DNA of 64,000 bases from Rhizophagus irregularis (Eukaryota), in assembly GCF_026210795.1 (NCBI RefSeq), contig NC_089429.1, positions 3,534,001 through 3,598,000 of the forward strand. The letters are read 5' to 3'. The notes under the pieces are model-generated. The model did not search any database. It was not told where the DNA came from and worked only from the letters and a program-made list of their open reading frames with translations. A program made the translations under genes and the position numbers. How positions within the stretch are numbered: the first letter of the stretch is position 1; each line of letters opens with the position of its first letter. Shown here piece after piece: positions 1,512-49,016 of the stretch.

Positions 1512-2013
1512 ATGTCATCAGAACTTGAATTATTGAAATAGCGTATCACTGAACTTGAGGCTGAGAATTCCGGTTTTAGAATCAAGCTCTTAGTGTCTGA
1601 AGTCTGATGCTGAAATAGCTGAATTTAAACGCAAGAATACTGAGTTTCTAAAAGCGAATAAGAAATATAATGAGAGGTATGATGCTGAAAATGCAAAACT
1701 CAGGGTTAGAATCAAGGAGATGGAATCTGAGTTTGGAGATAGAATCACGAAAGTGGAACAGAATCAGTTGCAAAACGATAATTCAGTTACAAAGCAGTTA
1801 CCTATGGTAGCACATTATGAAAAGCCATTGGTGGATAAAGAAATGGATACTTCTTTACCCGAAGAACCAACACCAGAAGTATCACCTACCAATATACCTG
1901 ACTCTCAGTTTGAGCAATGTAAGCCTGTTTGCAAAATAAATAATGCAGTATCAAAGGTACCTGTCAGCTCTAAGATATCAGAAGAAAGAGAAACTGGACT
2001 TGGATATGTGTAA
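1512..2013 (+). pseudogene. Coiled-coil 'MSSELELLK.RITELEAEN' multigene-family member, disrupted and 3'-truncated
   Basis: ATG at 1512 gives MSSELELLK*RITELEAENSG..., continuing into ORF 1720-2013. The reading frame runs directly into the micro-exon array at ~1993. Confidence 0.55.
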
Positions 2014-2400
2014 AGAAAAAGAAAAAAGAATTTTTTTTAATATTAAGAAATGTACTAACGTTTCTTTCTTTATTTTTTTGTAAGGCTAGGACGCCGAACT
2101 CTTAAAAACGAATCCAGACTTAAAAATGTAAGGAATAGGGGAGGGAGAATTGATTTTTAAATATATATTAAAGAAATGTACTAACGTTTCTTTCTTTGTT
2201 TTTATTGTAGGATTAAGACGCCAGACTCTTGGAAATGAATCTGGACTTGGATAATGTAAGGAATGGGAAGGGAATTGGTTTTTTAATATTATTGTAATTT
2301 TATTTTTGTTTTTTTTTTAGGTCAGACTACTATTTTTTGTAGAACGCCAAACCCGGACTTGAAATATAAGGAATATGGGAAGGGAAAGATAAAATTATTT
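1993..2400 (+). repeat. Micro-exon/intron tandem array A (~4 units, ~125 bp period)
   Basis: Repeated exon core GACGCC..ACTCTT..AA.GAATC..GACTT, GTAAGG donors, TACTAAC at 2053 and 2179 inside AAGAAATGT-ACTA-ACGTTTCTT, then poly-pyrimidine tract and AG. Confidence 0.75.
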
Positions 2401-2479
2401 ATATTTCTGAACTTGTATAATATTTAGTTAGATCTTTTCAATAACGGGTTTAATAACATGATTTAAAATATTTTTTTTT

Positions 2480-3145
2480 ATACAGTTTTTAAAACTCTTT
2501 AAACTCCATATGGGAAGGGTTCATATGCCGGGATATCTAATAGAAAATTTTTTTTAAGAGATTTCCTAAGATTTGTATAGGATATTTTTGATAAATAAAG
2601 ATTTTTTTTTTTGAAACTTCTAAATTTCATATGGGAAGAGTTTGTATGGGATATCTGATAGAAAATTTTTTTTTTAAGAGATTTTCTAAGAGTTCATATA
2701 GAAAGGGTTCATATGGGATATCTGAGATTTCCTAAGATTTGTATAGGATATTTTTAATAAACAGAGATTTTTTTTTTTTGAGATTTCTAAATATTCGTAT
2801 AGAAAGAATTTGTATGGAATATTTTGATAAAGATTTTCTAAGAGTTTGTATGGAAAGAGTTTGTATGGGATATTTTAATAGAGATTTTTTTGTGAAATTT
2901 TTTAGGGTTCATATGGGATATCTTTGATTGATAGAGATTTCTTTTTTGTAAAATTTTTTAGAGTTTGTATGGATGTTTTTGATAGAAAATTTTTTTTGAG
3001 ATTTTCTAAGATTCGTATAGAAAATAGAGATTTATTTTTTTGAGATTTTCTAAGATTCGTATAGGAAATAAAAATTCTTTTTTTAAAATTTTCTAAGAAT
3101 TTGTATGAGATATTTTTAATAGAGAATTTTTTTATAATTCGTAAC
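2480..3145. repeat. Degenerate minisatellite (units about 45-60 bp)
   Basis: Many imperfect copies of GAGATTTTCTAAGA(G/T)TT(C/T)GTAT(A/G)GGA...ATATTTTTGATAGA. Confidence 0.7.
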
Positions 3146-3904
3146 ATTAAATAAAAAATAATATACTTTTTATTAAATTTATATTAAATAAATTAATATT
3201 ATTAAACAATTTTAAAAAAATTTAGGTCTCCGAAAATCAAGGTAAAATTTGATACAAATTTAAAAGGTCATTATATATAAGGTAAAATTATGAGACGAGT
3301 AAATTCGATATTTATCTATTATTAACCAATTAAAATTCGGTCTGATCTTTATGCACGTGACCTGATCTTAACATGCATATAAATTACCAAACTAGAGTTT
3401 GTTTATTTTTCAAAAAATATACACGCTTTTTCTTTTCTGTTTTTTTCTTACTCTTTTTACATTTTACAGGTATATTTTTGTCATTAAATTTATTGTACTG
3501 ACTATATTTTATTTTATAATATTAACTTTATCATTTTTTAATATTACTAATGTTTCTTTTTTTTTATATTACTAATGTTATTCTTTTTTTTATATATTTT
3601 ACTAATATCATCATGTATTTTTCTTTTTTTTATCAAACTCTTCATAATACTAACTTTGTATTTGTACTTTACTATGATTACTAACTTTTATATTTACACT
3701 TTACTATTTATTAAATATTACTAACTTTATCAGTTATATACTAACATCTGTCTTCAAATATTACATCATTTTGTAGTATAAAGTATTTAAAAAAGATTAT
3801 GAATGGTTTTTATTTTAAATATTAATAAATAAAGACACTATGTATTTTATTGTTTGTAAAGTTTATAATTTTAATAAATATTATAATGTGCTGTAATAAA
3901 TTTC

Positions 3905-4250
3905 ATAAATTAACCCATAAATTGACTATCAATATAATTGACCATAAATTGACTATCGATTGACCATAAATTGACCATTGATTGACTATAAGTTGACTAT
4001 TGATTGATCATAAATTGACCATCAAATTGACTATCAATCAGTCACCAATCTGACACCAATCAGTCACCAATCAGTATATCAATCTGTCATCAATTGAACT
4101 GCCCAGTTGGTGTCAGATTTTGGCAGAAATTGGATGCCAATCGGGCAGCCCGATTGGTATCTGATTGAGACAATCAGTTACCAATCAGTCACAAATCGGA
4201 TACCCAATTGATGACTGATTGATGACTGATTTGACATTTTTTAACTTGTG
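3905..4250 (-). mobile_element. CACTA-like element end with subterminal repeats
   Basis: Runs of ATTGACCATAA and CACCAATCAGT ending in ...TTTTTTAACTTGTG. Reverse complement CACAAGTTAAAAAATGTCAAATC resembles the terminus-like TACTAGTCGAACGATGTCAAATC at 9111. Confidence 0.5.
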
Positions 4251-4821
4251 AAAGAAGCATTTCTGGGCGAAATATTCAGACCAGTATTTAACAATATTGT
4301 AATGTTAAGTAATATACTTGACTTAATAGTTGAATACTACATGGCAAGCTACGAAATGATGGAATTTCAGAAACTATTTGGAAAGCAAAGGTGCAGAAGA
4401 TTTGATAATAGTTCAAGTTAAAATGAATCAATTTGGAAGATGCCGAATTAGTTCTGAAATATTCAGCTCTTCGATATCATCACATAATGTAAAAAGCTCA
4501 TTTATCTTGGCAAAATTTATGACAGAAAGTGGTGATATCGATTGCTATTCTAGACAAGTTTAATACTTCTTTACACATGCCGTTAATTTGCCAGATGAGT
4601 TATCCAAATATAATCTAGCATTTATTCACTGATATAAACCTGCAGAATTATCAAATATTCAGTATCATTTTAGAGTTAGAGATGATAAAATATGCAATGA
4701 TATTGAATTATGGGATACCAAGTTTTACTTAGAATTCCGTGACTGTATTATTCCAGTTCATCATATTCTTGGCCGATTTATATCAACGAAATACCAAATT
4801 TCAGGCAGAAGAAGTTCAAAC

Positions 4822-7376
4822 CAGGGCCGATGATTTTATTTGATCATATAATTTCACATTAAACGCATAATTTATGTGATATCACATAATTCCTGTATAT
4901 CAAATCATAAAATCACATAATATAGGATCTTCCTATGTTAAATCACATAATCCGCAGTAAATATAAATTCAGCTTCAGATGATTATCAATTATCTTCGAT
5001 CTCTTTTTTCGTTATAAATATTATGCCGCCAAAAAAAAGCAAAGTCGTTTCAGTTTACACCAGATGTAATGAATATAAAGACATTTTTCATGTTGATGAT
5101 AATATTCTCTTCTGTAATTACTGTAATGTTTCTGTGGAATGGAAGCATAAATCTGTTGTAGATAACCACTGTAAAAGTCAGAAACATATATCAAATGTGA
5201 GAAGTCAAGAAGAAAGCCACAATAGAACACAGCAACTTACTCTCTCGTCTACTCGAGCAGCTTCTGAGTCAAAGAACCAACTTATTGAAGACCTTATAGA
5301 AGCATTTGCAATAGCAGACATTCCTCTTGAAAAAGTCAATTCTTTACTTCCATTTTTTAAAAAACATGTTAAAAATGGAGGCTCTATTCCCCACGCTCCT
5401 ACTCTTAGACAAAATTATTTACCTAATATTTTTGACAAGTATTATCAATCTCTTAAATTACTTTTTGATTCAAAACCCGTGGCTATAATTATGGATGAAA
5501 CCACTGATGATTGTGCTCGAAGCGTTGTTAATACTCTTTTTTGTTATTGTCATGAAACAAAATTAGTTTCAGTCGATTTTCTTGAACGCGTAACAAATAC
5601 TACAATGGGATAAGTTCTTACAACAATTCTTACTCATTTCAATATATCTTTTAATTTGCCACGTTTATTTCTATCAGATTCAGCGGCTTATATGAAAAAA
5701 TGCTATCGTGAAGTCTTGTTACCATTGATGCCACAATTAATTCATGTTCCGTGTTGTGCACATATTATAAATCTTATCGGGTATGTTTATCAAATTATTT
5801 TCGTGAGTATAAAAAAATTTAATAGGATAATTAGTTTTTCTTATAGAGATTTTTGGTTTGGGTTTTGTTACAATCACTATTATTATTATTTTTGATTCGA
5901 TAATAATTATTTTACATTATATTAATTTATTACGATAATAATTAGTATATCATTAATTTATTATATATTTATTACATCATTTTTCATAATAATTAGTATT
6001 ATTATTACATCATTTTGCCTATATAGTTAAATTATGAATAGATTAGACAGAATTTTTTGAATAATAAAAAAAAACATTTGAATTTTGATCTTATAATATT
6101 GTTTTGTTCTTTGACCTCCTTTTTTTTGTTGCTTATTTGATTTTTTTGAGTTCGTTTTGCTGAGATTTGATCTTTCTTTTGTTGTACTAAATTAATAGTG
6201 ATACGTGGAGAACATTATCTCAGTTTAATATTTTGAAAAGTTTATTGGATAAAATTAAAGAGGTTTTCGTCCATTCTCCTGCCTGAAGAGGCCGATATTT
6301 AGCTTATTTGAAAATGCATGGAATTTTTTCACCATGCAAAATTCCTTTATATAACAAAACTCGTTGGAATTCTTGGTTTCGGATGGTAATTTATGCAAAG
6401 GAACACATCATCTATTGGCCTTCTTTTTTTAAAGAAGAATTTGATAATGACAAGAAACACGTTATATTGATGGCCATTAATTCTTGTCTACAGAATGAAA
6501 AAGAATCAGGCATCATTACCATTTATCTTAATTTCATTTCTTTTTACGCTAAAGAATTCATTCAAGATCTCGATTTTTTCCAGTAATTAAATAAACCTAT
6601 TTTTCCTCTTGTTGAATTACGACTTCAACAGTTCACTTCTTATATCGAAATGTATAGGAATTCAAACGATTTTGGCCCTTCTTTGGAAAATTTAATAATC
6701 CAGCTTCGATTTAATCCAAACGATTTCTATGCTATTTTCAGATTGGCCTTTGAAACAGCTTACAGCAAATTTTCTGCCCATATTTCTAATCATCCAACTC
6801 GACCACTCTTTCATGCATGCCAAGTTTTTGATCCTAGATATATTCATGCTGGAGACCTTTTACGAAAGAACATTCGGCAGTACAATATAATTAAGGAATT
6901 CGCTAACCCATCAGATGAATTATTACGAGAATGGGGAATTTATTGTGGCTTAGATAATGAATTTTTAGGTGAAATCAAATTGGATCAATATTGGTTAAAT
7001 AAGGCAACGCAATTGCCAATCCTTTCTAATATTGCTTTGGATTATATTTGGCTGCCGATATCAAGTTGTACTGTTGAACGGAGCTTTTCTATGTACAATT
7101 CTCTTTTGGATAATGATCGGCAAAGTTTGTCTAAAGATTCTCTTAAGGGATTAAGTATGTTGTACTTTAATGGTGTTTAAAATATGAGGAATTAAAATTA
7201 AATGATAAATTTTATAAAATTATCACATCTTTATTATACATAAAATCAAATAATTATATAAATTTATCAAATAATATCACATAAAATAATAAAAATTAAA
7301 AAAAATCTTATCACATAATTTGGTTATAACACATAAATAATCTATGTTATATCACATCATAAAATCATCAGCCCTG
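4822..7376 (+). mobile_element. Full-length hAT DNA transposon
   Basis: 18-bp TIRs CAGGGC(C/T)GATGATTTTAT with 1 mismatch. Perfect 8-bp TSD GTTCAAAC at 4814-4821 and 7377-7384. Subterminal ATCACATAA repeats. Confidence 0.93.
5023..7180 (+). pseudogene. hAT transposase with CGGBP1-type BED zinc finger; one intron; three in-frame stops
   Basis: LFCNYC...DNHCKSQKH zinc finger; IIMDETTD, LSDSAAYM, CCAH and TRWNSW motifs; C-terminal SSCTVERSFS dimerisation region. Stops at 5611, ~6285 and 6584. Intron at ~5782-6198. Confidence 0.88.
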
Positions 7377-8339
7377 GTTCAAACGTCTATTTAGCGGTAA
7401 ATCCAATCAATAGAAAATTTTATATTCGCTGAAATTAGTATCTTTTTTGAACTTTATTTTAATGAAATGACATATAATTTCAAATAATACAAATATCGAA
7501 ATTTATTAAATGTTAACAGTTAAAACAATACAATACAAATATCAGAATTTATTAAATGTCAAATTTACATATAATATAATTATCAAAATGTCAAAATATT
7601 ATAATGCGCAAACATTGAAATTTGAAACAACTAAATATCAGAATTTTGCACCACAAATCAGCTATGCCAAATGTCATCTGTTATGCAGCCGATTATCAAT
7701 CATATCCAAAATTGGAATTTTGCACTGCAAATCAGCTATGTCAAATGTCAGCTAATTATTGATCATATACAAAATTTAGCCAAAATTTAACCAAAATTTG
7801 GCCAATTTGTCTTACTTCTGATTTGCCTTATTTCAACTAGTATTTTTTTTATTATTTTTTTTTATTTATAGTATGACTGGTCAAAACTTTATGTTAACAT
7901 TGTGTCTGTATAAGATTCAAGTAAGAGAAGTTCCCCATTTCTGCTGTGCAATGAGAATATCTAGGCATACTTGTGTCAAATAACACTTCATACCAAAGAG
8001 AAATAAAACAAAAACAAAAAAAAATGAAAAATAAAAAATAAAAGGTAAAAGCCGATAACGAAACCCTATAATATAACTACTACATTCCTAAAACTAGGTC
8101 CCACTGATCATTCTGTATAGAATTCCTCAAAATACTCCTAATTTTCTTAGCATTAATCTAATTTCAGCTAAAACAGTTAGTTTCACTGGTCAAAATAAAA
8201 ACTTTCAATCATGTGACAAATCGGCTGATCTGTCATACATTTCGGCCAAATTTTGAAAATTATTAAAAATTGGCCAAATTTTGACATATATGATTTATGG
8301 TTGATTTATTGAATTATTTAATCAAACGTTATACGTTAT

Positions 8340-9110
8340 GCGTTACGCATATTAAAAGTTTAAAAAAGAATCATCTTATACATCCTTTTTTAAACTTTTT
8401 TTAATTTTTTTCTTTCCCTCCCTTTTCCTTTCCTTCATTCCCCTTCTCTGTTTCCCCTTCTTCCTCTTTCCCTTCCTTCCCTTTTTCTTCCTTTCCCTTC
8501 TCCCTTTCACTTTTTTTACTTTTTTTTTATAGGTTCGGCTTTCAAGTGGGCTTCCAAAGTACTGAAATTCCAAAGATTCGTAAATATGAATACTTTGGAG
8601 TTTATTTTATTTTTTTAATATGAACGGTTACTAACCGTTCTTTTTTCTTTTTTTTTAGGTTTGGCCATTCAGATAATTTCTGAAGAATGGAAAAAACCAA
8701 GTTTTATAAGTTTGGAACTTGGTTTATTTTTTTTTAATATTATGAATGGTTATTAACCGTTCTTTTTCTTTTATTTTTTATAGGTTTGGCGTCTCAGGTA
8801 GGGCTTCTGAGTTCTGAAGAATGAAAAAAACCAAGATTTGTAAGTATATATGAATCTTGGTTTTAATTTTTTTGTTTTTTTAATTTTATTAATGAATGGT
8901 TACTAATAACCGTTTCTTTTTTTATTTTTTAGGTTTGGGTGGGCTTTTAAAGAACAAACCCCCAAAGATAAAGATTCGTAAATATGAATCTTTACTTTTT
9001 TTTCTTTTTCTTTTAATTTTATTAATAAACGGTTACTAATAACCATTCTTTTCTTTATTTTTTTAGGTGCGGTGGGTTTCTGATAAATGAAAACCTAAAG
9101 ATAAAGATTT
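8340..9110 (+). repeat. Leader hairpin plus micro-exon/intron tandem array B (5 exons), ~150-350 bp inside a CACTGGTCAAAA terminus at 8184
   Basis: Exons of ~45-56 nt (GTTTGG...GGGCTTC.GAAGAA.GGAAAAACCAAGATTC), GTAA(G/A)T donors, GAACGGTTACTAACCGTTC branch palindrome, poly-T and TAG acceptors. Confidence 0.8.
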
Positions 9111-9445
9111 TACTAGTCGAACGATGTCAAATCGAGGACCAATCAGGTGACCGAATTCCACCTGATTAGTTCCTATTTTTTAAAAATTTTCATCAATCGG
9201 TAACCCTGATTGCTGCCAAAAGATGGTGCAAAAGGAAGATACTCAGGTACTAATCAGGATATTCAATAGAGTACAATCGGGTATTAATAGTTACCAATAG
9301 AATATTTACTATTTAACATATCAGTATACCGATTTATAGCTTTTTGATAAATTTATAACAATAAGAAATCTTCTGATTGCCATACATTTTTATTTAAAAA
9401 TTTACAAAAATTTACGATTTTATTTAAAATATTTAAAATATTTAA

Positions 9446-12400
9446 TTCGTGATTTGCCGATTACGGGATGTTGATCATATATGCATGTAATAATCAAGGC
9501 GGGGATAATCAATATATTTGAACGAGTATACTTGTAACAATCTGACAACGCGTTATTAAATATTATAACAAACTGTTTAAACATGTCAAAACGGTGGAAA
9601 CCTTCAGTAACATTGATTGCTACTGGTATAATTATTCCCGACTTACACTTTGGGCCTTTTTTAAGAAACTGGTGGCATGTTAGATCGTTACAGGAGAACG
9701 GAATGAAAGTAGAACAATACTATCCTTTTCGAATTGGTATGAAAACACAGGTTGAGCTGAAAAACAGACCTTTTATTATTCGAATAGTTCAAGGAAATAA
9801 ACATAACAATTTGTTACCGGGATTTTTTTGTGAATCTTTATCTGAATCTAATGAAGAAGTTGAAAATGACCCTACTAGTGCTATTTCAAACCTCTATAAA
9901 AAAATATTTCAAACTGAAACGCGCTTTTCTGGAACATTGGTAATGGGTATGGATGACAATGACATTCTAAGTGAAATTGTATCGGACTTGTCCTTTCTAC
10001 CTTTTTCAATAAATATGCAAAAGATCAATATAACAATACATTCAATTAGCGCGTCAACAAACAAAGGAGTTGGAAGTGGATTCGCATCATCCTTTATCTA
10101 TACCAGGTCTAAAGAACGTGCATTATTTTTCCAAACTGTCAATGAGAATGAAAGTTCCATTTATATTTACAAAGAAAACCAACTATCTGAAGAATTTCAT
10201 GGATCAGATCCTAATAGTGTGTGGAAAAAAATGGGCATGTTAAAAGAATGGTTAGGCGAGACTTTATTTGGCTTAGATAATTCTAACGTAAAAAAAAAAC
10301 TAGAACAATTGAAAAAATTTGTATGTTTTTATAATGAATGGCACGATTATTCAAAAATGGAGCAAATATTCAGATATCATTTACAAAAAAGAACATGTAG
10401 TCAAGTTGATTGGTATTTATTATTTCGGGAATGGAAAGAAAATAATTGTCCAATAATTGAATTACATAGTCAATTAGCTTCGTTATATCCAAATGGTTAT
10501 ATTTTCTCAGAAAGAGAAATGAGAGCATGGCGGGCGATGTTACGTGCTACAGGATGTATCAATATAATACCATTTGATAAAGAAGAATCAGAGGTAAGCT
10601 TTTAAACAAATTTATTACTTTCAATAGCAAAAATCTCACATTAATATTTCACGAATCTGGTGGTGATGGTAATAACTAATGATGGTGGTATATCGTGATA
10701 TAAATTCTGTGATGAACAGCACATGTTAAATTTTGTTCTATTATAAATAAAAAATAATGTTCAACTAATAAATTTTCTTACCAATTATTATAGTATGAAT
10801 TTTGGACGCGATCATCTCGATCCTGAATCAGATAAAGCAATGATAAATATGCTTTATCAAAATGGTTTTTTACGAACAATACCAAGTAATATGTTCAATG
10901 CTACAGAAGTATTCTGGAAAAGTTTTGAGCATAGTTTGAGTTTAAATAAACGTGGCGCTAATGGAAAACAAAGAATACTTTCAATAATTGCAGATAAGTT
11001 TCCTTATAAGGAATTACAAACTAGACTTCATGTAATTATTTTATAATTACCTTTGAATAAATTTTTCGCTAGTTAATTCATTATCTTTTGTAGGTTTCTT
11101 CACATACAATTCACAATGCAAAAATACATGGACGTATATTTGGCAATGGATGTCCAGCTGCACCTAAGCCACCAATGCGAAAAAAAATTATGCCTCAAGA
11201 GCATGAAGATCAATTCGAATGGTTCATGAGCAGTAAAGAAAATGTGAATTTAAGTTCTTACAAGGTCGATGCCAAAACAGGGTTGCCATTAAAATACCTT
11301 AGTGATCAGAAAGAAGCTCTTTGGGAAAAATTTCACAAATTGTACCCTGAAGGAATGAAGAGATCAGCATTTTTGGAAAGATTGAGAAATGGACCATTTG
11401 TATATCAAGAGGATTTGGGCGGACTTTGTAGTACTTGTAGTACATATGGATATGATGTATTTAAGGATTTGGCAAATCTAATTATACAAAATATTGAAAA
11501 TCAAGAACTACAGGTATTATTCCGTCCAATTTTTGTTTCTATAATTATAAATATTCAAAACTAATAACAAAATTGTAAATTAGACGCGTTTACTTAAAAG
11601 TATTGAAAATTCTAAACGATTTCTCAAACGTGATTATCCAAAACACTTACATGTGACATGTGATGGAAAAGTATCGCATGACCCTTGTATTAATCATTGC
11701 CTACCATTTGCATTTGGTAATTGTAATGAGGATCATATATCGAGTGTGTTGAATGTAACGAAATCTTCAATTTATTTGAGGAATTGCGATTATTACTTGG
11801 AGATGAACAACAAGAAACATTGAGAGAATTTCAGGAAATGCTAGAATACTACCTTGCGCACCTAACAAGAAAAGGGTATTTGAACAGTCAATTCAATGCA
11901 AATCTTTTGCAACTTAATAACGATGGTATTCTTATTGTGGTGGACTATAAGATGCGAATACTACCAAAACGAATTCGAGAAACAAAACAAGACTTCTATG
12001 CAAAACGTGGATGGGCACTGCATACTGTTTTGGTATATTCTAAAAATCAAGAAAGCAACGAATTAGAAATTCAAGCATTTGACCATTGGTCAAATGATAA
12101 TAGACAGGACGCATGGTTTACTGCTTCATTCTTTGATGCAGTATTTACCTTACTCGATCCAAAGCCAAAATGGGTTATCGTAATGAGTGATAATGGCCCA
12201 CACTACCATTGTTCAGAAACAATGGCATTGGTTTCAAAATGGGCAGAATGGTATAATATTGAATGTAAAAAGTGGTGTTTTTTAGAGGCAGGCGAAGCTA
12301 AAACCTCAATTGATAGTCACCATGCACAAGTAATAATCATATTTACTTTGCTTTTTTTGACAAATATATTCATTCGAGCAATTCTCATCTCTTTTAATTC

Positions 12401-13980
12401 AATCAATCTAAGATCTCACATGCTATTAAGAGATATGTTCGATTAGGGTTTGATTTAACTACTGGTGAAGATATTGAAAAGGCATTAGATGGTTTAAGTG
12501 GTACAGCAATAGCTTATTTGAAACCTAATCGTGATCAAAGGAGTCAAAGTAATGTTAAAACTATACCAGGAATTTCTAATTGGTTTGAATGGTCTTGGCC
12601 AACGGAGGGTCCCTTAGCTGGATATATTTGTGCACGCGACCTTCCCAATTTTGGAGAAATGATGACTTTTTCTGTGAGTAAATTTACTAAAACAGAACTT
12701 GTACAGCCTGAACCAATGGTGGGTGAACATTCCAAGGCTTCTTTAAAATGGACAATGCCAATATATCGAGCTTCAGGCAAGCTTATTTTTTCAATGGCAT
12801 TAATGGCGTTTCAATTTAATAGATCACACTTATTGTATGATTCATTTGAACAATTTTCATTTGGTAGTGACAAATACTAATCATTGGGATTTAAGAAGAT
12901 GGACAGTTGATAAATTAAAAGATGAATTGAACAGAAGAAATATTCATTTTAATATTGGTATGGGACGAGGTGAATTAGTGAATTTGTTGAAGCAAGAAAT
13001 AGGAGAAGAATCACAAATTGGTGAAGAATCAAGAGAAGATTTCTCAAAAACAGATATAGATGAGTGAGTAAAAATTGGTTTTATTATGTAAAATAATTGA
13101 TCAAATGCTCAAAAACTTTCAAAATATAATAGGAATCAAATATTTCACCTACAACTTGGATGGGCACTTAAATGCAATCAGAAATATGGTAAAAAAGGCA
13201 GTGGAAAAAGACTAGTAAAAGAAGTAGTAACGGCGTTAACTCACTTTTTTATGGTTGGACAACGTGATCCTAGTGACCGATACACTGCAAAGGATATGCT
13301 GGATGGGTTGAAAGAAATGGCAGAGAATGGTGAAATTACAACTGAAGTAATACCTTCTCTAAAAACGATAGAAAATTGGATTACTAGATATTCAAGTTTA
13401 TCGAAAAAAGAACATGCAGAACGTTTTTAGAAGAATAAATGCATTGATAAATAAATTGCGAATAAAAGATTGTAATAAATTTTACATTTTAAAATTGGTT
13501 ATCCCAGACAACCAATAGTTTTGCTACAATGAAAAATACCTTTTTTGATAATATGAAATTTGCGTTTGACTTTCAGAAATTTCAATAAAAATTCGCCAAA
13601 AATAAACAAAATATGACTTTTTTATCTTTTTCTTTATTATTAGAACAAGTTTATTAAAATATAACCCCAAAATTTGAACAAATATTAGAATTGTAAAGAT
13701 CGAAATTATGAAAGAGCCTATATATTAGAGGCAACAATCTGACATTGTCCACTAATAAACTTTTTGAAATTAAAAAACAAAATTATCGAAAAGTCATTTT
13801 GATTGAAACAAACGTGGTTATGGTGACGTATTTACAAAAAGGAAGTGGCTGAAAATTGCATATAAATTTGTGTTACTTATTGGCTAATTTCCGTAATTTT
13901 CCAGAATTAATTAGTGATCAGCAAAATTTTTGCCCCACGTTACACTGAGAATTTTATGTTACTGATCGGCGAATCACGAA
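9446..13980 (+). mobile_element. Sola3-like DNA transposon, full length
   Basis: 16-bp TIRs TTCGTGATT(T/C)GCCGAT flanked by TTAA on both sides (9442-9445, 13981-13984), enclosing one multi-exon transposase gene. Confidence 0.82.
9583..13438 (+). pseudogene. Sola3-like DDD transposase (multi-exon) with FYR-like N-terminal repeats, SAP-like motif and C-terminal helical domain; frameshifted
   Basis: VVDYKMRILP..RETKQDFYAKRGWALH, MSDNGPHYH and EAGEAKTSIDSHH catalytic-type blocks; WTVDKLKDELNRRNI...GRGELVNLL; GWALK...FFMVG...IENWITRY. Apparent frameshifts near 10817 and 11741. Confidence 0.72.
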
Positions 13981-14034
13981 TTAATATACTAAAAAATCAG
14001 TTTTATTGAAATACCGATATTGCTAAAATTGTTA

Positions 14035-17550: not shown

Positions 17551-17589
17551 TTATACAATATGCATGTTGGTCGAATATCTACATCACGC

Positions 17590-18410
17590 GTTACACATAT
17601 CAAAAGTTTAAAAAAGAATCTTATGCATTCTTTTTTAAACTTTTATTCCTCTTTTTCCTCGTCCTTTGGCTCTATAGGTGCAGGAAAAAAAATTTTTTTT
17701 TTTATTATTTATTTTTTAAATTTTAGTGGCTTCGTCTTTTCCTTCTCAGAATGCCAGTCAAAACTACACACCAGACTTTGGATAATAAGATAAATGGGAG
17801 GGGGAAGTCAGTTTTTTTATTTTAGAAACATTATAACGTTTCTTTTCTTAGTTTTTTTATTTATCATGAAGTCCATTTCGTCTGGAAATACTTGTAAGAA
17901 AAAGAAAGATTCGTAAGTCGAATCTTAGTTTTTTTTTAATATTATGGAACAGTTTGCTTACTTTGCTAACCGTTCTTATTTTTTTATAGATTTCGGGAAA
18001 ACGAAAAGGAAAGGGTAAAACGAAAGGGGATGGATTTCTGAAGGATATACTTTTAGAATTTGTAAGTATTAATCTTAAATTTTTTTTTTTATTATTATGG
18101 AACGGTTTACTAACCATTCCTTTCTTTTTTTATAGGTTTCAGTGTCTTGAAAGGGCTTCTGAAGAACGGAAAACCCAAAGATTCATGTACGAATCTTTGT
18201 TTTTTCTATTTTTTTAATATTATGAACGGTATTAACCGTTCTTTTTCTTTTTTTTATAGGTTCAGTGTCTCGGGAAGGCTTTCAAAGAATGGAAAAACCC
18301 AAAAATTCACATATGAATCTTATTTGTTTTACTTTTTTTTAATATTATGAATGGTTATTAATAACCGTTCTTTTCTTCTTTTTTTAGGATTGGGTGGACT
18401 TCCGCAAGTT
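17590..18410 (+). repeat. Leader hairpin plus micro-exon/intron tandem array C
   Basis: Leader homologous to 8340-8400. The first unit resembles array A and later units resemble array B (AAGATTC GTAAGTC GAATCTT; GAACGGT..TAACCGTTC). Confidence 0.78.
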
Positions 18411-34690: not shown

Positions 34691-35535
34691 ATGGCACAGC
34701 CCAATTGATCTAGATTGCTTATAAAAAGCCGATCATCCGACCCGTGTGGCGAAGTAAATTAAAAATTAAACAGGATAATTAGGAATTAAGACTATCTTTT
34801 TTTGAATTCTTCCGAATATATTACAAAACACTGCTTATTTCATTATTTCTTTATATATATATATACATATATATTTGCGTCTATAACAAAAAAAAGGATG
34901 CTTAATAATGGGAAAATACAGTAATTTCTTTCTGCAATTCCTTTCTTCTAATAAAATGTAATATTATACATTTTTATATACTTCTCTAATTTCTATTAAG
35001 TATTATACCAATTAAAGATAACTATTAATAAAACCATAAAGAAATCAATAATTTAATGTACTCGCGTGACTACAAAATGATATAAAAGACTTGACCATCC
35101 GCCCGACCGGCAGATGCGTACATTAAATAAGACAAACGTAACTAATGTGCAATTATAAAAACTAAACAAAGAAAAAAATTTAAAGAAAAAAGGGCTTTGT
35201 CCACATAAATATTCCTTCCTACGACTGATTCGCATAATGTCGTTTATATTTTTTATAATTAATTCTGATAAACAAATTAGTTAATTATTTATAGTGTTAA
35301 CTGACAACCCATTAATAGTATAATGTACATTTACCCATTCAAATCATGTGCGCATTCTGCAAAATCGTCTAGTTGGCACGTGATGATCTACATTAGTAAT
35401 ATAAATTCTGGGGCAAGATTTGATATAATGCTAGTCAAATTTAGATTAATGCTAGGGTCTAATGTCCAAATTCGTATTTATCAAGTGATAAAAAATTTTA
35501 AATTTCAACTTCGTTAAAAATAAAAGAAAAGAAAA

Positions 35536-40051: not shown

Positions 40052-42123
40052 ATGGACCAACTAAATAATATAACCCTTTGGGATGTTAAAGATGTATTTA
40101 ATAAAGTGTAAGTTTTTATTATAAACATTGTAAGTTAAGTTTCAACTAGATTGCTAAAAAGTATTTTTTTAGTAAGAATGTCGTGATGAACTATACTGAA
40201 ATGGAGGCCAAAGTACGTGAGGCCACTAATAATGAACCTTGGGGCGCTAGTAGTACTTTGATGCAAGAAATTGCCCAAGGTACCTATAATTAGTAAGTGA
40301 TAATGGTATAAGCTAGTTTGTTAGAATGAATTTTTTTTTATTTATACAAACCGGGAAATTTTTTGATTTATCTTCATTTTAATTGAAGCGCACATTTTAA
40401 TGAGATCATGCCAACAATTTATAAGCGATTTACAGAAAAGGAAGCGAGGCAATGGAGACAAATTTATAAGGTAGCCAATTTAATTAATTGATATTTCATT
40501 GGATAGGTAATTAATTCAAATTATTTTGTTAATTTTTTATTAACAGGCTCTTCAATTGCTTGAATATCTTGTGAAACATGGATCTGAAAGAGTTGTTGAT
40601 GATGCCCGAGCACATATGGGAACTATTAAAGTTTTGAGAAATTTCTCTTATTTTGACGAAAAAGGAAAAGATCAAGGAATAAACGGTTAGGAAAACATTT
40701 TTAGTTGGACATCGAATAAAAATGATTTTTTCATTTTATTTTATATATTTAATATTTAATATATACATATATTTAGTTCGTAATCGGGCAAAAGAACTTG
40801 CAGACCTTCTAAACGATAACGAAAAAGTTAGGCAAGAACGTAAGAAAGCAAAAGCCAATAGAAGTAAATTCACTGGCGTTAGTTCAGACGCAATCGGTTA
40901 TGGAGGTTTTAGCGGAAGCTTTAATGGTGGATCATCTCGTTATGGAGGATTCGGAAACGATTCGTATAGTTATTGTGAGTATCGTTAAGTTTTATATTAA
41001 CCAGTATTTTATTTACAAAAATTTAAAAAAATTTAATATATGAAAATATTTGTTATTGTTTAGCTGAGGAGAGATCTCGTTCCAGATATGATGATTACGA
41101 CATACAATGGCAAAGTGATTATAGGTCTGGAAGGATTTCCCCATCAGATGACAGAAGATCGAGTCTCGGAAATAATAATCGATCAAGTATATCTTCAATT
41201 AAAAAGACATCCGAGTCAGTCACTTCTAATTCCAACGGCTCATCCGAACAACAGAAAGAAGTAAATTTATTTGATTTCGATGATCCTTCTGTTACTTCAG
41301 CTACCTCCAATCAAACCACTTCCAATGATTTTGGTAAGAAAAGAATATGTTTTATTATTTTAATTCAAAATATGTTTATCTTTACCTTCTATCCAATATA
41401 TTTAAAAAAAATCATTTTTATAGATGATGATTTCCAAGATTTTCAAAGTGCACCACCTATGCCATCATCTCAAAGATCATCAATTTCTCAGTCATCAGGA
41501 CTTCAAAATAATTCAGTTCCTTCAATTCAACCAATCACAAATTTAAAATCAGTTCAGCCTATTTCAAATGTACAATCACCAACTCAACCTAATGTAAATG
41601 TTTCTTCTGGAATTAACAATAATTTACTTGACGATTTTCTTGGTCCTGTATCTGCACCACCATCTACAAATTTGCCAATTAACACACAAAAAGCTTCCTC
41701 TACATCATTAAATACTTCACAGCCTATTAATGCTTTCAATACAACAAAACCTATTTCACCAACTACACCGAAGCAAGTAAGCAATTTAGATGTTTTAAAA
41801 TATCTTTTTTTTTAATGAAAGCTGTTTTTTTAATATTTAAAAATTTACAGAACATTCCAAACCAAAATACTTCCTTTCCCAACTTGAAATCTAATGATAT
41901 ATGGGCATCTAATCTTGTATCTTTGGATTCATTGGGAAAAGAACCCAACAATACAAAACAATCTGCTAAGCCAACAATGAATTCTCTTGCACAAGCTGAC
42001 TCTACATCTTGGGCAGTTAAAGGAACCTGGACTACTGCACAGCCAGTACAACAGCCTATTCATCATAACACTCAACTTAATTCTCAACAAAAACAACAAG
42101 ATTCATTTGATTTGCTAATGTGA
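40052..42123 (+). CDS. ENT3: ENTH-domain epsin-related clathrin adaptor (Ent3/epsinR type), multi-exon
   Basis: KNVVMNYTEMEAKVREATNNEPWGASSTLM, WRQIYKALQLLEYL, GKDQGINVRNRAKEL; tail with NLFDF, DDFQDFQSA and LVSLD. Confidence 0.88.
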
Positions 42124-42619
42124 TTTTATATCATTATTATTATAATAGAAATATAGGAAGAGTTAAATTTTAGATGATTTAATAATTTATGATGATACAC
42201 CAAAAAGAAAAAATCCCAAAATATTTAATAATACAAGTATATTATGTAACAAGATTTGATTATATTAAATTATTATTTTTTATTATATTTCTTCTTAGAT
42301 TTAATAGTTACAAGTTTTGGATCAAATATTTATTTGAGAGTTTAATGGGTTTCATGTTATTATTAAAAAAATATACATTTTAACAATTATTTTATTGGTT
42401 ATATAGTTAATAATAAAAAATTCTATCTATTAAAAGTAGTAACTAAATTTCAAATTTTATAACCTATTTATTACTATCAGTTTAAGAATTCTGTAATTTT
42501 TAAAGTTTTACAAGTTTATAATTTTTTGTTAATTTTAAATCACTAAAATTCCATAAATTACTATTGGATTTTTTAAGAGATTTTAATAATTTAATTCATT
42601 ATATTATTGTTAAATATAA

Positions 42620-42913
42620 GGCCAAAGAAATAAAATTATTCGTTTCTCATGAAAAAAAATTGCTAAATTTGACCCGGCCGCCCGGAAAAAAATTTTATTT
42701 TCAAAAAAAAATTTAGTCGTTTCCTAGAAGATGATTGGTTGATTCAATAAATTTTTTGCCCGGGTTACTGGGTGGAAAAAAAATTATTTTTTTATGATTA
42801 TGATTGGTCAAACCCAAAATCACATGACCAAATAAAATAAATTTTTTTATCTTTTCGTAACATTTACATGACCCGCCCGGTAATGAGAAACGAATAAATT
42901 TATTTACTTGGCC
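42620..42913. mobile_element. PIF/Harbinger-type MITE (294 bp)
   Basis: ~31-bp TIRs GGCCAA..AAATAAA.TTATTCGTTTCTCAT with TAA on both flanks (42617-42619, 42914-42916). Confidence 0.82.
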
Positions 42914-42940
42914 TAATATATTAATTACAAAATTTTTAAT

Positions 42941-43040
42941 CTTAACCCTTTTTAACCATAATTTTAACTCTAATATTAATCCTAATCCTAACCTAACTTT
43001 AATTCTAACTAATTCTAACCTTTGGTAATTTAATTCCAAT
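42941..43040 (+). repeat. Degenerate (CCCTAA)-like hexamer tract
   Basis: CTTAACCCT, CTCTAA, TCCTAATCCTAACCTAACTTTAATTCTAAC. Confidence 0.45.
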
Positions 43041-43782
43041 TTTAATTATAAAAGTTTATATTCTACAAATATAAAACTTTTAAAATGTCATCAGCACAAT
43101 TTTAGGTACTTTCAATATAAAAAAACTGATACAATCAAAATAATGCTATAAAGCAAATATTTTATTTTATTAATACAGTTAACATATAATTTATAATATA
43201 TACAATTAGATAGTAATTTACATAATCTATTAAATTAATGAATAAATGGCATTTAATTCTATTTGCTAATATATAATCAAGTAAATCAACAATATATATT
43301 TGAAATAATTTATGCATTTTAATTAATAAATTTATATATTGCTTTATTATGACCTTTTTTCTCACAATTTTAATAAGTCTTTTGCTTGTCTTTTTATTAT
43401 TATTACTTCTATTTGTATTATTATTTGACATTTAGTTATTAACTTATCATTTAATAGTTGTAAATGTCAGAATTTTCTAGCATAGTGCCATAGTAATCTT
43501 GAATTTCAATACAACTCTTTATTTTTCTAATTAGCCTTCCTTTTCTTATAGTAATTATAGGATTTTTGATATTAAAATCAATTTCTTCTATATTCTAATC
43601 TAATTCTAAAAGTACAATATAAATCCATAGCAAAAACCTATAAATTTGTTATAAGAATTAATAGCAATTGCAATGTCAAACAAATGCTTTTTACATTAAA
43701 TCATATATTTTTTATTACGTACAGTTAATTTCTCTTAAATTTTAATTGTAAAATTCAGTACCACAAATTTGTTTAATATATT

Positions 43783-44090
43783 TTACTAAAAATAGCCAAT
43801 TTTTTGAAATGATTTTATAATAATTTAAAATATTACTAAAATATATTTAATACATCAAAATATTTTTATTATACTTTTGTTATTATTTTATAATTGTATT
43901 GTATCTAGGTTTATAAAAATAACTCAAAATAATATCACAATAATTTTTAATGCTTTTATTATTATTTTATTATTATAATATAATTGATTTTGATATTATT
44001 TTAATGCTTTAATTTCAAAAATACCTTAAATAAATTTTGATATATTTTAATATATTTTAAAAATTTTACAGAATAATTGTATAATTGTAT
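43783..44090. mobile_element. Truncated copy of the ~365-bp AT-rich MITE
   Basis: Starts TTTACTAAAAATAGCCAATTTTTTGAAAT and is colinear with 45790-46090. Confidence 0.75.
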
Positions 44091-44213
44091 AATTGTAGTA
44101 GTCTGATTTGTAGATATGAAATCTAAATATCTATACAGATATATGGATATTCAAATATAAATTTTAAGTAACAGATAGAAAATTACTGATATACAGATAT
44201 CTATTATGCATAT

Positions 44214-44854
44214 AGGACCCCGGACATCACATATATAACTCATAACTAATCTGCATGAATTTAAGTACTTTTTGCTCCTGCTAAAATAGACCTAATTTGC
44301 TAAAAATCAAATTATCACATTTCAAATCTATACTAATTTGCTAAAACTCAAAATATGAGTTAATAATTTTTTCTTTTATTATCAATAAAAAAATAAATGA
44401 TTAATATAAATTAAACTGCCAATTTTTATAATTAAAATATGTAGATTATAGATAAAATAATAATTAATAAAAATAATAAATTAAATAAATAATTATTAAA
44501 AAATAAAATGTTGCGAAACTAAACGGACGGTTTTTGGCCTGCATTATGCTTAAATTTGGCCGGAATTATACTTAATTTTGGCCAAAATATAACCTGGACC
44601 CCGAAACTAATATTTTTAAAAATATTATTTATAAAGTTAAAAAAAAAGGATAAATTAAATTTAAAAAAAAGTACCAATTTGCTCAAATATAAAATATGAC
44701 TTTGTAAAATCAATACAATTTGCTAAAACTCATAATTATAACTATTAATTAATTTTCAATCAATTTGCTCTATCTAAAATTATGAGTTTAACCTAATTTT
44801 GATTGAATTTGCTAAAACTCAAATGTGAGTTATATATGTGATGTCCGGGGTCCT
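44214..44854. mobile_element. Non-autonomous TIR element, AGGACCCCGGA family
   Basis: 29-bp perfect TIR AGGACCCCGGACATCACATATATAACTCA; 8-bp TSD ATGCATAT; internal TTTGCTAAAACTCA repeats. Confidence 0.9.
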
Positions 44855-45345
44855 ATGCATATTAACTAATTTTATATAATAGTTAATTAAAAAGCATAAT
44901 AAAATATAATACATCAGGAAATTTTTTTAGGCGTAATTTAGTGTAATATTTTGGAGGTAGTGTAAAATTTCAAAATATTACACTAAAAAATGTAATATTT
45001 TTTTTTTTTAATCACAATATATTTGATAGTTTATTAAATTAATTGTTAAAGCAAATTACATAAGTAAGTATAACTCTAAACTATAATTTAATATTATTAA
45101 CTACCAAACCACTCGTCATGCTGAAAAGCACCTCACGTGTATACTGTTGAGTGATACGTTTTGCTCAGAGGGTAAGAAATATTTGCAATGTCCTATTTTA
45201 GCATAAATGCCCTTTTTCTTCACAAGGCAATCACAGGATCCACTACATTACAAATAAAAATAAAAAAATAAAAAAAACAATTTTTAGAATTCCTGTAAAA
45301 TCAAAAAAATTAAACAATCCAGATCATTCCTTTTCCATAAATCTA

Positions 45346-45714
45346 CTACTTTACTAAAAATTGCCAATTTTTTGAAATATTTTTATAGACCTAGATACAA
45401 TAGCTTTCAAAACAATTGTGCAATTATTTTGTAAAATTTTTAAAATATATCAAAATATATTTAAGGTATTTTTGAAATTAAAATATTAAAATAATATCAA
45501 AATTAATTATATTATAATAATAAAATAATAATAAAAGCATTAAAAAATTATTGTGACATTATTTTGAGATATTTTTATAGACCTAGATACAATACAATTA
45601 CAAAATAATAACCAAAGTATAATAAAAACATTTTAATATATTAAATGTATTTTAGTAGTATTTTAAAATTATTACAAAATCATTTCAAAAAATTGGCCAT
45701 TTTTAATAAAGTAG
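45346..45714. mobile_element. ~365-bp AT-rich MITE, copy 1
   Basis: TIR ACTTTACTAAAAAT(T/G)GCCAATTTTTTGAAAT at both ends. No clear TSD. Confidence 0.78.
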
Positions 45715-45789
45715 CTCCAGTGTTGGACAAATCCATCTATCCAAATTGTAGGATCTTATGAGCGCACAATTAAAATCAAAACCCAACTT

Positions 45790-46153
45790 CTTTACTAAAA
45801 ATGGTCAATTTTTTGAAATGATTTTGTAATAATTTTAAAATACTACAAAAATACATTTAATACATCAAAATGTTTTTATTATATTTTTGCTATTATTTTG
45901 TAATTATATTGTATCTAGGTCTATAAAAATAACTCAAAATAATATCACAATAATTTTTTAATGTTTTTGTTATTATTTTATTATTATAATATAATTAACT
46001 TTAATATTATTTTAATATTTTAATCTCAAAAATACCTTAAATATATCTTGATATATTTTAAAAATTTTACAAAATAATTGCACAATTGTTTTGAAAGCCA
46101 TTGTATCTAGATCTATAAAAATATTTCAAAAAATTGGCCATTTTTAGTAAAGT
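45790..46153. mobile_element. ~365-bp AT-rich MITE, copy 2, inverted relative to copy 1
   Basis: Same TIR. The internal sequence is the reverse complement of 45346-45714. Confidence 0.78.
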
Positions 46154-46675
46154 TGCTGTAGATAGGAGAGTCTATACGCTTACTGGATATTGCTAGTTGA
46201 GAATAGATGAGGTCCTATTTGCAAAATGAAGTTTGAAAAGCGTAACGAGATAAGATATCTACTATAGAGTGTCTAGATGCACAACTATAAAATCCTAATA
46301 CTAGTAGTCTTCCCCATATCATAACGATTTGTAACTACCGTTTGAAAGCTCTATCTGAAAAAATATATAGGTAATAAAAAAAGACAAAAAAAGAAGTTGC
46401 AAAAAATTGAAAAAAAACTATATAAAAAAATTAAAGAAACACAAAAATCCTGGTATAGTATTAATCTACTGGTAGGTTTGTCACGATTCTTCTTTTTTCT
46501 TGGAGCGAAGAAACAACTAAAGATGAGACTCAGGCGAGTACATGATAGTTGCACAGGTCGAATGAAAAAAAATCGGATTTTGACCCTTTTAAAATAGCTT
46601 TGCCGATATTAGCATAAACATGCCGATTTTTGCGTATTTATGTATAGATGTACCCATTTATGCCGATTTTTAATA

Positions 46676-47190
46676 AAATCCGATACATCAGTCAGAAATA
46701 CCAGTTTTTAATGGCCGATCTTTGTTAATATTAAATTCAGATGTTGTATTATTATATAGTATTGCTCGCTTTTCATATCGGAGGTTTGATGTACAAATCG
46801 GAATTTGCTCCTTTAAATATAGCCATGCCAATTTCAGTATAGCTTTCGATGAAATCTGATACATCAGTCGGAAATACCAATTTTTAATGGCCGATCTTTG
46901 TTAATATTAAATTCGGATGTTGTATTATTATATAGTATTGTTCGCTTTTCATATCAGAGGTCTGATGTACAAATCGGAATTTGCTCCTTTAAATATAGCC
47001 ATGCCAATTTCAGTATAGCTTTCGATGAAATCCGATAATTCAGTCGGAAATACCAATTTTTAATGACCGATCTTTGTTAAATAAAACCGACATTAAATTC
47101 AGATGTTGTATTATTATATAGTATTGTCCGCTTTTCATATCGCAGGTCTGATGTACAAATCGGAATTTGCTCCTTTAAATATAACCATGC
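46676..47190. repeat. Three tandem copies of a ~177-bp unit, probably the interior of a CACTA-like derivative starting CACAGGTCGAA at 46552
   Basis: AAATC(C/T)GATA..TCAGTC(A/G)GAAATACCA recurs at ~46676, ~46853 and ~47028. Confidence 0.85.
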
Positions 47191-47540
47191 CGGTTACAGC
47201 ATATCTTTGTCAATTTAAAGTATAATACTGTCACGGTAATACTGCAGACTTAATAATTTTAATATATATATATATATACTAATGTACCGACTTCATAACA
47301 ATGAAAATTCGGATAGAGAAGAAAAAAAGGAAGTATTGGAAAATAAGTGAATTAAACCTTCATGATATACTTAAAGATAATAAACTTAGGACCTTAGGTG
47401 GAAAATTAGTTAAGTGCTTCTTAACTTAACAAATAGAAATATACTTATACCATAAAAGAAAAAGAGAACATAATTATTTAAAAAAAAATTATTTTGATTT
47501 TTTTTTTTATTATTATTATTATTAGGTAAGTTGGAGCGTA

Positions 47541-49016
47541 CAGTCACCCCTCTCTACAGCGAACCTCGATATAGCGAATAACATGATATAACGGATCATA
47601 CAGTGTGGTACCGATTTTAAATATGAAAAAAACCTTGATATAACGAAGTTTACTATTTATTTACCGTATAACGTAGTACGAAGTAAAGTGTGTGAATTTC
47701 TTATATAAAAATGCCTCTCGATATAACGGATTTTTTTTATAACGAATTTTTTTCAGTTATAACGAAGAATTTCTTTATAATTAAATGTAATTATTAATAA
47801 ATATTGATGCATTATGACATTAAATATCACCCCTGTGTTTTATATTTAAATTATGGATCAGGGATTGTATCAGGATCGTATCGGGATTAATAATTCTGGC
47901 TATTTTATTTAATATTTAGGCAGAATTACATTAATTTACATTAATTCAGTTGTATTAGGATTCGATGTGAATTGTTATTAATTTATATTTATCACAGGGG
48001 TAAGGACACTCCTAGTTAAATTAATATATCATTAATAATTTATTTATTATATATTCAGTTATTGTTAAACAGCATTCCTACAAAAAAAAGGAATTATAAT
48101 AAACATTTTTATATAGAACACTTCAGGAAGCATTCCCTATAATAAAAAAATAAAAAAAAAACATTAGTAAATGTTCTTAAACGAAATTAAAAGAAAAAAT
48201 TGAGTTGTGCCACTTACTTCTTGTCTCAAGCGTTCATTTCGAAGTCCCTACAATAAAAAAAAATAAAAAAGAATATTAGTAAATGTTCTTAAACGAAATT
48301 AAAAGAAAAAATTGAGTTGTCCCACTTACTTCGTCTCAAGCGTCCATTTCGAAGTCCCTACAATAAAAAAAATAAAAAAAGAACATTAGTAAATGTTCTT
48401 AAACGAAATTAAAAGAAAAAATTGAGTTGTCCCACTTACTTCGTCCCAAGCGTCCATTTCGAAGTCCCTACAATAAAAAAAATAAAAAAAGAACATTAGT
48501 AAATGTTCTTAAACGAAATTAATAAAAAAAATCGAGTTCCCCACTTACTTCTTGTCTCAAGCGTCCATTTCGAAGTCCCTACAATAAAAAAAATAAAAAA
48601 GAACATTAGTAAATGTTCTTAAACGAAATTAATAAAAAAAATCGAGTTCCCCACTTACTTCGTCTCAAGCGTCCATTTCGAAGTCCAGGAAGTTTCCTAC
48701 AATAAAAAAAATAAAAAAAGAACATTAGTAAATGTTTTTAAACGAAATTAATATAAAAAACCCCCAGTTCCCACTTACTTCTCATTCTAGGCATCTATTT
48801 TGAAGTTTAGAAAGCACCACTATAAAAAAAAGATTAAAAAAAATGTTAAATTATCGGTAATCAGATCAACAAGTCACATGATCTGTATAACCGATATTCC
48901 TATACCGAAGAATTCATTATACAATACCGAATAATTCATTATAGTGTTAACGAAGTTGCTTATAACGAAGCCCTGATCAGCTGGAACCTAGGGTTCGTTA
49001 TATCGAGAGGGGACTG
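47541..49016. mobile_element. Non-autonomous Tc1/pogo-type element
   Basis: TA TSD; TIRs CAGTCACCCCTCTCTACAGCGAACC / CAGTC-CCCTCTCGATATAACGAACC; subterminal GATATAACG repeats. Confidence 0.85.
48075..48830 (-). repeat. Micro-exon/intron tandem array D (~110-bp period, 6-7 units, near identical)
   Basis: Exon GGACTTCGAAATGGACGCTTGAGACGAA (e.g. 48330-48357), GTAAGT donors, ~82-nt introns with AAGAACATT-TACT-AATGTTCTT and TTTTATTGTAG acceptors. Confidence 0.88.

Follow-up and report, generated by a model that had tools for sequence, protein, structure and literature searches.

The stretch of Rhizophagus irregularis DNA analysed here (hereafter the window) comprises 64,000 nucleotides (nt) of contig NC_089429.1 (assembly GCF_026210795.1, positions 3,534,001 to 3,598,000), has a G+C content of 29% and carries four tandem arrays of alternating short exons and introns. 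All four had been proposed in an earlier note on this DNA and were found where it had placed them (Table 1). By reading, they hold 18 units (three, four, five and six in arrays 1 to 4, respectively), made of an exon of 28-56 nt and a GT-AG intron of 65-93 nt with a TACTAAY-type branch motif, a T tract and a final AG. The GTAAG donor that the note ascribed to the units is present in 11 of them; three others carry GTAAA and four have decayed donors. The genes of the window are intron-rich and include, according to Pfam, a chitinase with GH18 and SH3 domains, a DEAH helicase, a dienelactone hydrolase and an exonuclease/endonuclease, to which we add, by sequence recognition, what are presumably TBP and an epsin-like gene.

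Tandem exon-intron arrays in the window and in metagenomes

Array 1 comes after a broken open reading frame (ORF; 1505-2013); its third intron lacks the hairpin described below and a donor at 2366 is decayed. A related unit type is present in metagenome locus L065. Array 2 starts some 350 nt from a CACTG end, which we call CACTA-like from its terminal motif alone, and is cut at 9111 by another CACTA-like end. The block at 8332-8412 upstream of it, a putative promoter, is common to array 3 and to L065, where the array-2 family lies behind a CACTAG end, itself inserted in an array-1-type array. The array-2 donor at 8706 is decayed in the window and is G in most reads of the family (120 of 147 reads of run X21, see below). 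The final two introns of array 3 have decayed donors. Array 3 is a homologue of array 2 (blastn 70-74%, E down to 7e-47) and also opens with an array-1-type hairpin; the four arrays are therefore not the independent sequences that the note had taken them for, and the exons of array 4 in turn resemble exons borne by hAT transposons. The internal exons of array 4 measure 38, 30, 28, 28 and 30 nt, its units are 92% alike and additional acceptors occur at 48820 and 48078. Elsewhere, at 3480-3760, seven TACTAAY motifs lie within 280 nt; T tracts accompany them, regular donors and acceptors do not, and this cluster of branch points may be a decayed one or one of another kind.

Table 1. Coordinates of the arrays and associated features in the window
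Feature	Position	Strand	Remarks
Array 1	1993-2400	+	Predicted introns 2008/2010-2084(2090), 2128-2210, 2256-2320, from sequence reading
Array-1 branch-point hairpin	2045-2066	+	Predicted; 9-base-pair (bp) stem, ACTA loop
Array 2, upstream part	8184-8532	+	CACTG-type (CACTA-like) element end at 8184; C/T-rich tract; first acceptor 8532
Array 2, exons	8533-8579, 8659-8705, 8784-8839, 8933-8977, 9067-9110 (span 8533-9110)	+	
Array 2, introns	8580-8658, 8706-8783, 8840-8932, 8978-9066	+	Predicted hairpins over branch point and donor
Array-2 branch-point hairpin	8620-8642	+	Predicted; 8-bp stem, ACT loop
Second CACTA-like end and broken transposase-like ORF set	9111-13430	+	Unclassified family
Array-2-type upstream block near array 3	17580-17657	+	blastn to 8332-8412
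Array 3	17727-18410	+	Decayed array-1-type unit, then introns 17913-17989, 18062-18135, ~18185-18259, ~18308-18387
Non-autonomous element (miniature inverted-repeat transposable element, MITE) with array 4	47541-49016		Imperfect CAGT... terminal inverted repeats (TIRs); TA duplication 47539-47540, 49017-49018
Array 4	48078-48830	-	Six introns of 80-82 nt (48778-48697 to 48217-48137)
Array-4 branch-point hairpin	48599-48620	-	Predicted; 9-bp stem, TACT loop

One scan of metagenome contigs returned 74 stretches in 71 loci. An intron context was found in 35 of these loci, which are partly redundant, and at least two units were present in 31 of the 35; the 36 loci dropped as being without intron context were 33 missed by the relaxed finder together with L026, L036 and L045. 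As the scan pattern fixes the hairpin, only hairpin-bearing arrays can be retrieved in this way. The loci yielded 143 unique units, sorted by eye into about 13 subfamilies; in the 122 of these whose donor is good, exons measure 20-63 nt and introns 59-96 nt. One of the 35 loci, L029, has its fungal-type unit (1193-1230) in a terminal position on a contig that also carries a bacterial TonB-type gene, and is likely a chimeric assembly. Seven further loci (L010, L011, L031, L034, L044, L056 and L063) form a repeated family with a similar TACTAA-centred stem, without T tract or acceptor. In the window, Rfam gave no match at gathering score, so that the arrays match no known RNA family, and a scan of viral sequences returned two matches, both chance-like.

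That the exons do not keep frame, as the note had stated, was borne out: exon lengths modulo 3 are distributed 51/17/54 over the 122 units, and long exon chains contain stops in all three frames (6/5/4 in L070, 4/7/6 in L033 and 2/1/2 in array 4 of the window), some short chains (L009 group, 107 nt) having none. With 51 of 122 exons a multiple of three and stops in the long chains, a coding gene of repeated micro-exons was rejected. ATG triplets number 0 in 327 nt, 1 in 375 and 1 in 301 of the sense leaders, but 5 in 273 and 2 in 113 in others, and 19 in 476 nt of the antisense/outward array of L033, a weak comparison given that these are repeat units. Minor U12 introns, whose donor consensus is of the GTATCC type, were likewise discarded, no such donor being found among the 122 listed; U12 introns are described as abundant in Rhizophagus in the part of PMC10639083 available to us.

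Splice signals and predicted hairpins

The array introns were compared with 27 introns of window genes, picked by eye and including one from the gene interrupted by the MITE. The array set comprised 17 window introns, the first unit of array 3 being left out and two coordinates being off by 1-2 nt (true values 2256-2320 and a start at 8706). TACTAAY occurs in none of the 27 host introns and the looser CTRAY in one, while TACTRAY was found in 87 of 115 unique array introns; GGG near the donor was seen in 69 of these 115 and in 1 of the 27 host introns. The branch points and donors of the arrays are thus nearer to consensus than those of host introns. Conservation was counted in alignments of eight subfamilies, for which hairpin spacing and T tract, but not GT/AG, served to select the units; the six with small or unclear alignments (a, h, i, j, k and w1) were not counted. 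Donor and acceptor Gs were kept in 246 of 257 cells, compared with 2105 of 2565 for other non-CpG Gs, so that splice motifs are better conserved than the rest of the unit; since the units are related, this excess is support and not proof.

The three hairpin stems quoted in the note are all present in the window, and a pattern covering two stem types matched it four times, against none in 100 dinucleotide shuffles. TACTAAY lies in a predicted 7-9-bp hairpin in 12 of 17 array introns and in 0 of 27 host introns, and ordinary introns of the window therefore do not share this feature at a similar frequency; under a looser test, with the motif within a 6-bp helix, the figures were 12 of 17 and 7 of 27. 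The note had placed the branch point at the apex of the hairpin. Instead, the predicted loop displays TACT or ACT/ACTA, and the branch A, by convention the sixth base of TACTAAC, is predicted to be paired immediately beneath it, within the 3' arm. The fold signal is local: whole array introns fold mostly unremarkably (z 0.0 to -2.4), whereas their 3' halves have a mean z of -3.2, compared with a shuffle-like +0.15 for host introns (energies differ with p=1.4e-4). In the array-2/3 family a second, stronger hairpin is predicted to cover the 5' splice site, its energy in six of eight units being between -9.9 and -16.8 kcal/mol; host donor regions have a mean of -4.1 kcal/mol over 27 introns, two of them reaching -9.2 and -11.7.

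Among 37 chosen representatives, 84.5% of stem cells are paired, with two-sided changes in 2 of 9 pairs, and three stem types stay paired through two-sided length changes. Their covariation score of 0.132 lay above shuffles (1/500), but slid controls, not all of which it exceeded, gave similar values (0.125 and 0.123), and compensation at a second stem pair was never significant when stratified. Stem changes are mainly CpG decay and strand-symmetric. The palindrome is conserved, be it as RNA or as DNA. A mirtron, in which the 5' and 3' ends of an intron pair into one hairpin, was rejected as the ends were paired in just 10 of 115 introns, and a lariat or mirtron source of small RNA (the note had offered a lariat/hairpin source) is accordingly unlikely. 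On the opposite strand the array-4 hairpin would present an AGTA tetraloop, which may be coincidence; AGNN-type tetraloops are recognised by budding-yeast Rnt1p.

Host transposons and transcription of the arrays

Pfam identified a hAT transposase in L006, L024, L016 and L033 and a MULE transposase in L008, while L028, L070 and L054 group with L006/L024 at 76-87% DNA identity. In L006, L024, L028 and L070 a sense array precedes the transposase ATG and a second, inverted array follows the stop, a layout of two hAT families, only one outer terminus being seen per contig. Read inward, L070 has its terminus, then subterminal repeats, a first donor some 300 nt in, about 13 units and the transposase ATG at 3842. 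The MULE loci L008/L042 have the same sense-upstream layout. Arrays placed in sense directly before a transposase start are likely 5' leaders there, and the note's proposal of a non-coding RNA was in this respect too narrow. One hAT terminus was found with three different flanks (L070, L028 and L047), and the array thus moves with its element. Inward-pointing arrays occupy both ends of L006, L024, L028, L070 and L027, and the exons at the two ends of hAT elements are as alike as those within one end (z of about 20 and about 12, compared with 4-7 between families), which points to homogenisation of the ends. Other layouts exist: in L033 both arrays are opposite to the transposase strand, the upstream one pointing outward, in direct orientation, and in L027/L049 a large array lies antisense behind an unclassified transposase-like gene. 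That gene is homologous to the ORF at 9538 of the window (blastn 68-71%), and L027/L049, relatives of the 9111-13430 element, carry arrays of another subfamily. The family of this ORF had no Pfam match, and its Atlas neighbours were unnamed, animal look-alikes included, with DUF7869 in 38% of one cluster. All organism-named relatives of the L027 protein come from Rhizophagus, Diversispora, Gigaspora or Entrophospora, and those of hAT L070, among the best 120 of 332, from Rhizophagus or Racocetra.

The MITE that holds array 4, which we take to be pogo/Tigger-like from its CAGT termini and TA duplication, sits in a predicted exon whose sense the array shares, and one of its ends recurs in L012, which carries different units. 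Array 4 matches hAT L016 (blastn E=2e-25), and its exons alone resemble those of hAT L033 (z of about 7), which suggests that units were exchanged between superfamilies. The note's view of transposon-borne arrays in differing hosts therefore stands, the hosts now including hAT and MULE elements, unclassified transposase genes and a pogo-like end.

Some further repeats were also noticed. A second, different tandem repeat separates the upstream array of L027 from its transposase-like gene (L027:6990-7790). At L008:1-260, opposite-strand intron-like repeats diverge from the MULE array across a short spacer containing TCACGTGA, an arrangement that suggests a bidirectional promoter. The window also contains, at 49300-49602, a small element with inverted ends of the GGACCCCGG type, within which lies an 80-nt inverted repeat; the array of L012 is truncated by an end like these.

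Reads of 4 of 24 listed runs were mapped, at a likeness of 85, to positions 8507-10700 only, that is, array 2 and the ORF behind it. In the DNA-like run X15 (689 contigs), depth was 300-3500 on array 2 and 58 on the ORF, a summed depth and not a copy number; the array-2 family is multicopy. In the polyA run X21 (1131 reads), depth was 55-202 on the array, 0-1.2 in the adjacent bins 9173-9468 and 0-3 on the ORF. As those silent subterminal bins are multicopy as well (X15 depth 158-766), the signal on the array indicates that the array-2 family is transcribed. The mapping favours the conserved intron half, so that splicing efficiency is not readable from X21, and its loose ends were unspliced or uninformative among those listed (24 of 298 rows, all runs). 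In run X24 (77 reads), loose-end groups at 8940, 9072 and 9110 (10, 7 and 7 reads) join an exon end directly to an exon start, a further group at 9061 (7 reads) has one of these exon starts preceded by the AG of its intron, and a loose end at 8801 (7 reads) joins unrelated sequence onto an array exon. The joined exon-exon motif was absent from the three family DNA sequences checked (window, L051 and L065). There is probably partial splicing in some copies of the array-2 family, nearly all reads coming from copies other than those in the window.

A proposed intron-dense leader, its rivals and known systems

As our tentative explanation (rough probability 0.45), the arrays are intron-dense non-coding leaders that license transposon RNA as host-like. 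This reading is preferred because the splice signals are stronger than those of the host, are conserved and stand before transposase starts. Tandem units of exon and spliceosomal intron inside the ends of DNA transposons would load spliceosomes on the transposon RNA, which would then be treated as the host's own and escape degradation or silencing, with a presumed benefit to expression. Transcription would start at a promoter near the element end, and the array would grow by tandem duplication of its unit. Homogenisation of both element ends might also yield antisense transcripts, and units could pass between superfamilies through nesting or recombination. The hairpin, by displaying TACT in its loop and covering the branch A, may tune or slow splicing. 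In the portions of the respective papers at hand, introns are required for expression in Cryptococcus (PMC5851062), hinder nuclear RNA interference (RNAi) in Caenorhabditis elegans (PMC5554785) and counter HUSH (PMC8770142).

Several observations weigh against the leader explanation. It does not account for antisense or outward arrays (L016/L033 and the large array of L027/L049) or for the ORF-less MITE with array 4, and the ORF that follows array 2 is part of a nested element and was not expressed in the runs (to 10700). The X21 reads shown mostly run through the introns, and only 20 of 1131 are at least 99% alike to the window, so that most come from other family copies. A lack of spliced reads at every family copy would have spoken against the note; the 24 junction-type reads among the 77 of X24 answer this in part, a thin yield, with no GT..AG joint among the 15 of 17 joints listed. 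That X24 is RNA is a guess of the mapping tool, though its profile is without the subterminal signal expected from DNA. Changes in the stems show no excess of G-U over A-C, as would mark an RNA strand (53 and 68; 31 and 35 after de-duplication), and compensation at one stem pair (Cochran-Mantel-Haenszel p=0.003) fell to p=0.20 upon de-duplication; together with the slid controls, these tests leave the covariation proposed as a check in the note unestablished. Finally, the units share descent, and the conservation p-values therefore overstate certainty.

A reading in which the arrays limit their own transposase, with splicing slowed by hairpins and stalled spliceosomes, together with convergent transcription from the two ends, feeding RNAi in a SCANR-like manner, appears unlikely. 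The predicted pairing of the branch A, and of the donor in the array-2/3 family, would suit it, as would polyA reads that mostly keep their introns and come about equally from both strands, and the arrays that point inward at both ends of five loci (L006, L024, L028, L070 and L027); the equality of strands may however reflect an unstranded library. Poorly spliced transposon RNA triggers small interfering RNA in Cryptococcus (Dumesic 2013, as reviewed in the available part of PMC5851062) and R. irregularis has small RNA loci (available part of PMC8647823), but the primary signals of the arrays are nearer to consensus than those of host introns, the opposite of suboptimal introns.

Rather improbable, too, is that the arrays are foldback-type subterminal repeats lacking any selected RNA function, in which tandem amplification of an ancestral leader intron with its exon was followed by recombination that carried it between element ends. 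The palindrome would then be a DNA-level feature, and splice sites would persist only because unspliced leaders are harmful or the copies young. The likeness of the two ends of one hAT family, of the kind described for long modular inverted repeats in the accessible part of PMC4079207, the strand-symmetric CpG decay of the stems and the many decayed units (4 of 18 window donors) all agree with this account. It sits poorly with the better preservation of donor and acceptor Gs, with stems of three types that remain paired as their lengths change, and with exon homology across superfamilies (array 4 with hAT L033/L016), unexpected for transposase binding sites. By contrast with both, a gene trap or camouflage of the insertion, in which acceptors capture read-in host transcripts and so lessen harm or exploit host promoters, is highly improbable. 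Arrays 2 and 4 do start with an acceptor and have no clear upstream donor, array 4 has the sense of the predicted exon it interrupts, and unrelated sequence is joined to an array exon at 8801 in X24; but L070 and L027 carry their own first donor inside the element, and splicing would remove the introns only, leaving frame-breaking exons behind. A wider form of the leader explanation, which we regard as doubtful, is a superfamily-independent 'intron passport', that is, a structured exon-intron module swapped and amplified by unrelated DNA transposons of mycorrhizal fungi to control splicing-coupled surveillance, with unit number and hairpin strength setting a dial from expression to self-silencing.

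Among known systems, foldback DNA transposons (FB, Galileo and Tetris; PMC4079207, as far as available) have long inverted ends with internal tandem repeats, a layout that hAT L006, L024, L028 and L070 appear to share, with one outer terminus visible per contig. The window MITE, with one array and short TIRs, and L033, with its direct orientation, lack this feature, and the repeat here consists of an exon and a spliceosomal intron with conserved splice signals, homologous between superfamilies. Galileo repeats are described as extra transposase sites, and the words 'intron' and 'splic' occur 0 times in the available text of PMC4079207; homology of units across superfamilies argues against transposase binding sites. 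Introners, or introner-like elements (ILEs), likewise supply many similar spliceosomal introns linked to transposons (PMC9860276), and fungal ILEs with predicted structure are known (PMC3609843), both from partial texts. They insert singly into exons of unrelated genes, whereas here intron and exon are tandem-duplicated inside transposon ends, and neither PMC9860276 nor PMC12130899 mentions Glomeromycota or tandem copies in the portions available. The introner/ILE assignment was rejected: the motif is found in 0 of 27 host introns of the window, 31 of 35 loci have at least two units, and exons are homologous within and between subfamilies, unlike in ILEs, where similarity is confined to the intron.

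Transposon long non-coding RNAs (lncRNAs) of Blumeria hordei are spliced and in some cases antisense to element genes (PMC10648671, partial text). Antisense-oriented arrays exist here too; read strands were about equal. For SCANR (via PMC5851062), EMB-4 (PMC5554785) and HUSH (PMC8770142), intron number or splicing speed decides the silencing of an RNA; these are host pathways, and the available texts contain no transposon-encoded intron array. The suboptimal splice signals associated with SCANR were not seen in the arrays, whose signals are nearer to consensus than the host's, although the hairpins may still slow splicing. Glomhopper Cryptons (PMC13465315, partial text) are intron-bearing DNA transposons of the same fungal group, Glomeromycota; their introns are predicted and interrupt the recombinase gene at sites that vary, and 'tandem' and 'UTR' are found 0 times in that text. 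Intron-bearing Glomhopper copies are mostly less expressed, which disfavours a simple rule that introns raise expression. Neither 'intron' nor 'splic' appears in the available main text of two papers on R. irregularis transposons (PMC8647823 and PMC11075540). Our literature search found no description of this architecture; Repbase, supplements and subscription journals lay outside it and may bear on novelty. The arrays are real, widespread, transposon-borne, transcribed and probably spliced in part, and fit none of the families tested, their function being what we infer.

Hosts are known to use introns and the speed of splicing to distinguish their own RNA from that of transposons, and tandem intron units on the transposon side, shared between superfamilies, would, if the leader explanation is true, be the missing counterpart. 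Arrays of this kind may account for part of the unclassified Rhizophagus repeats (24% of the genome according to the accessible part of PMC8647823), could mislead gene prediction and offer a natural series for the effects of branch-point hairpins on splicing.

Two other repeats were noticed in the window. At 45348-46153, 367-nt arms that are 94% alike flank a 72-nt spacer, with more matching arms at 43779-44088. At 50517-51063, a 52-nt palindromic unit is repeated in tandem in 10.5 copies with an orientation switch, and the ends of the element around it resemble 54603-54878.

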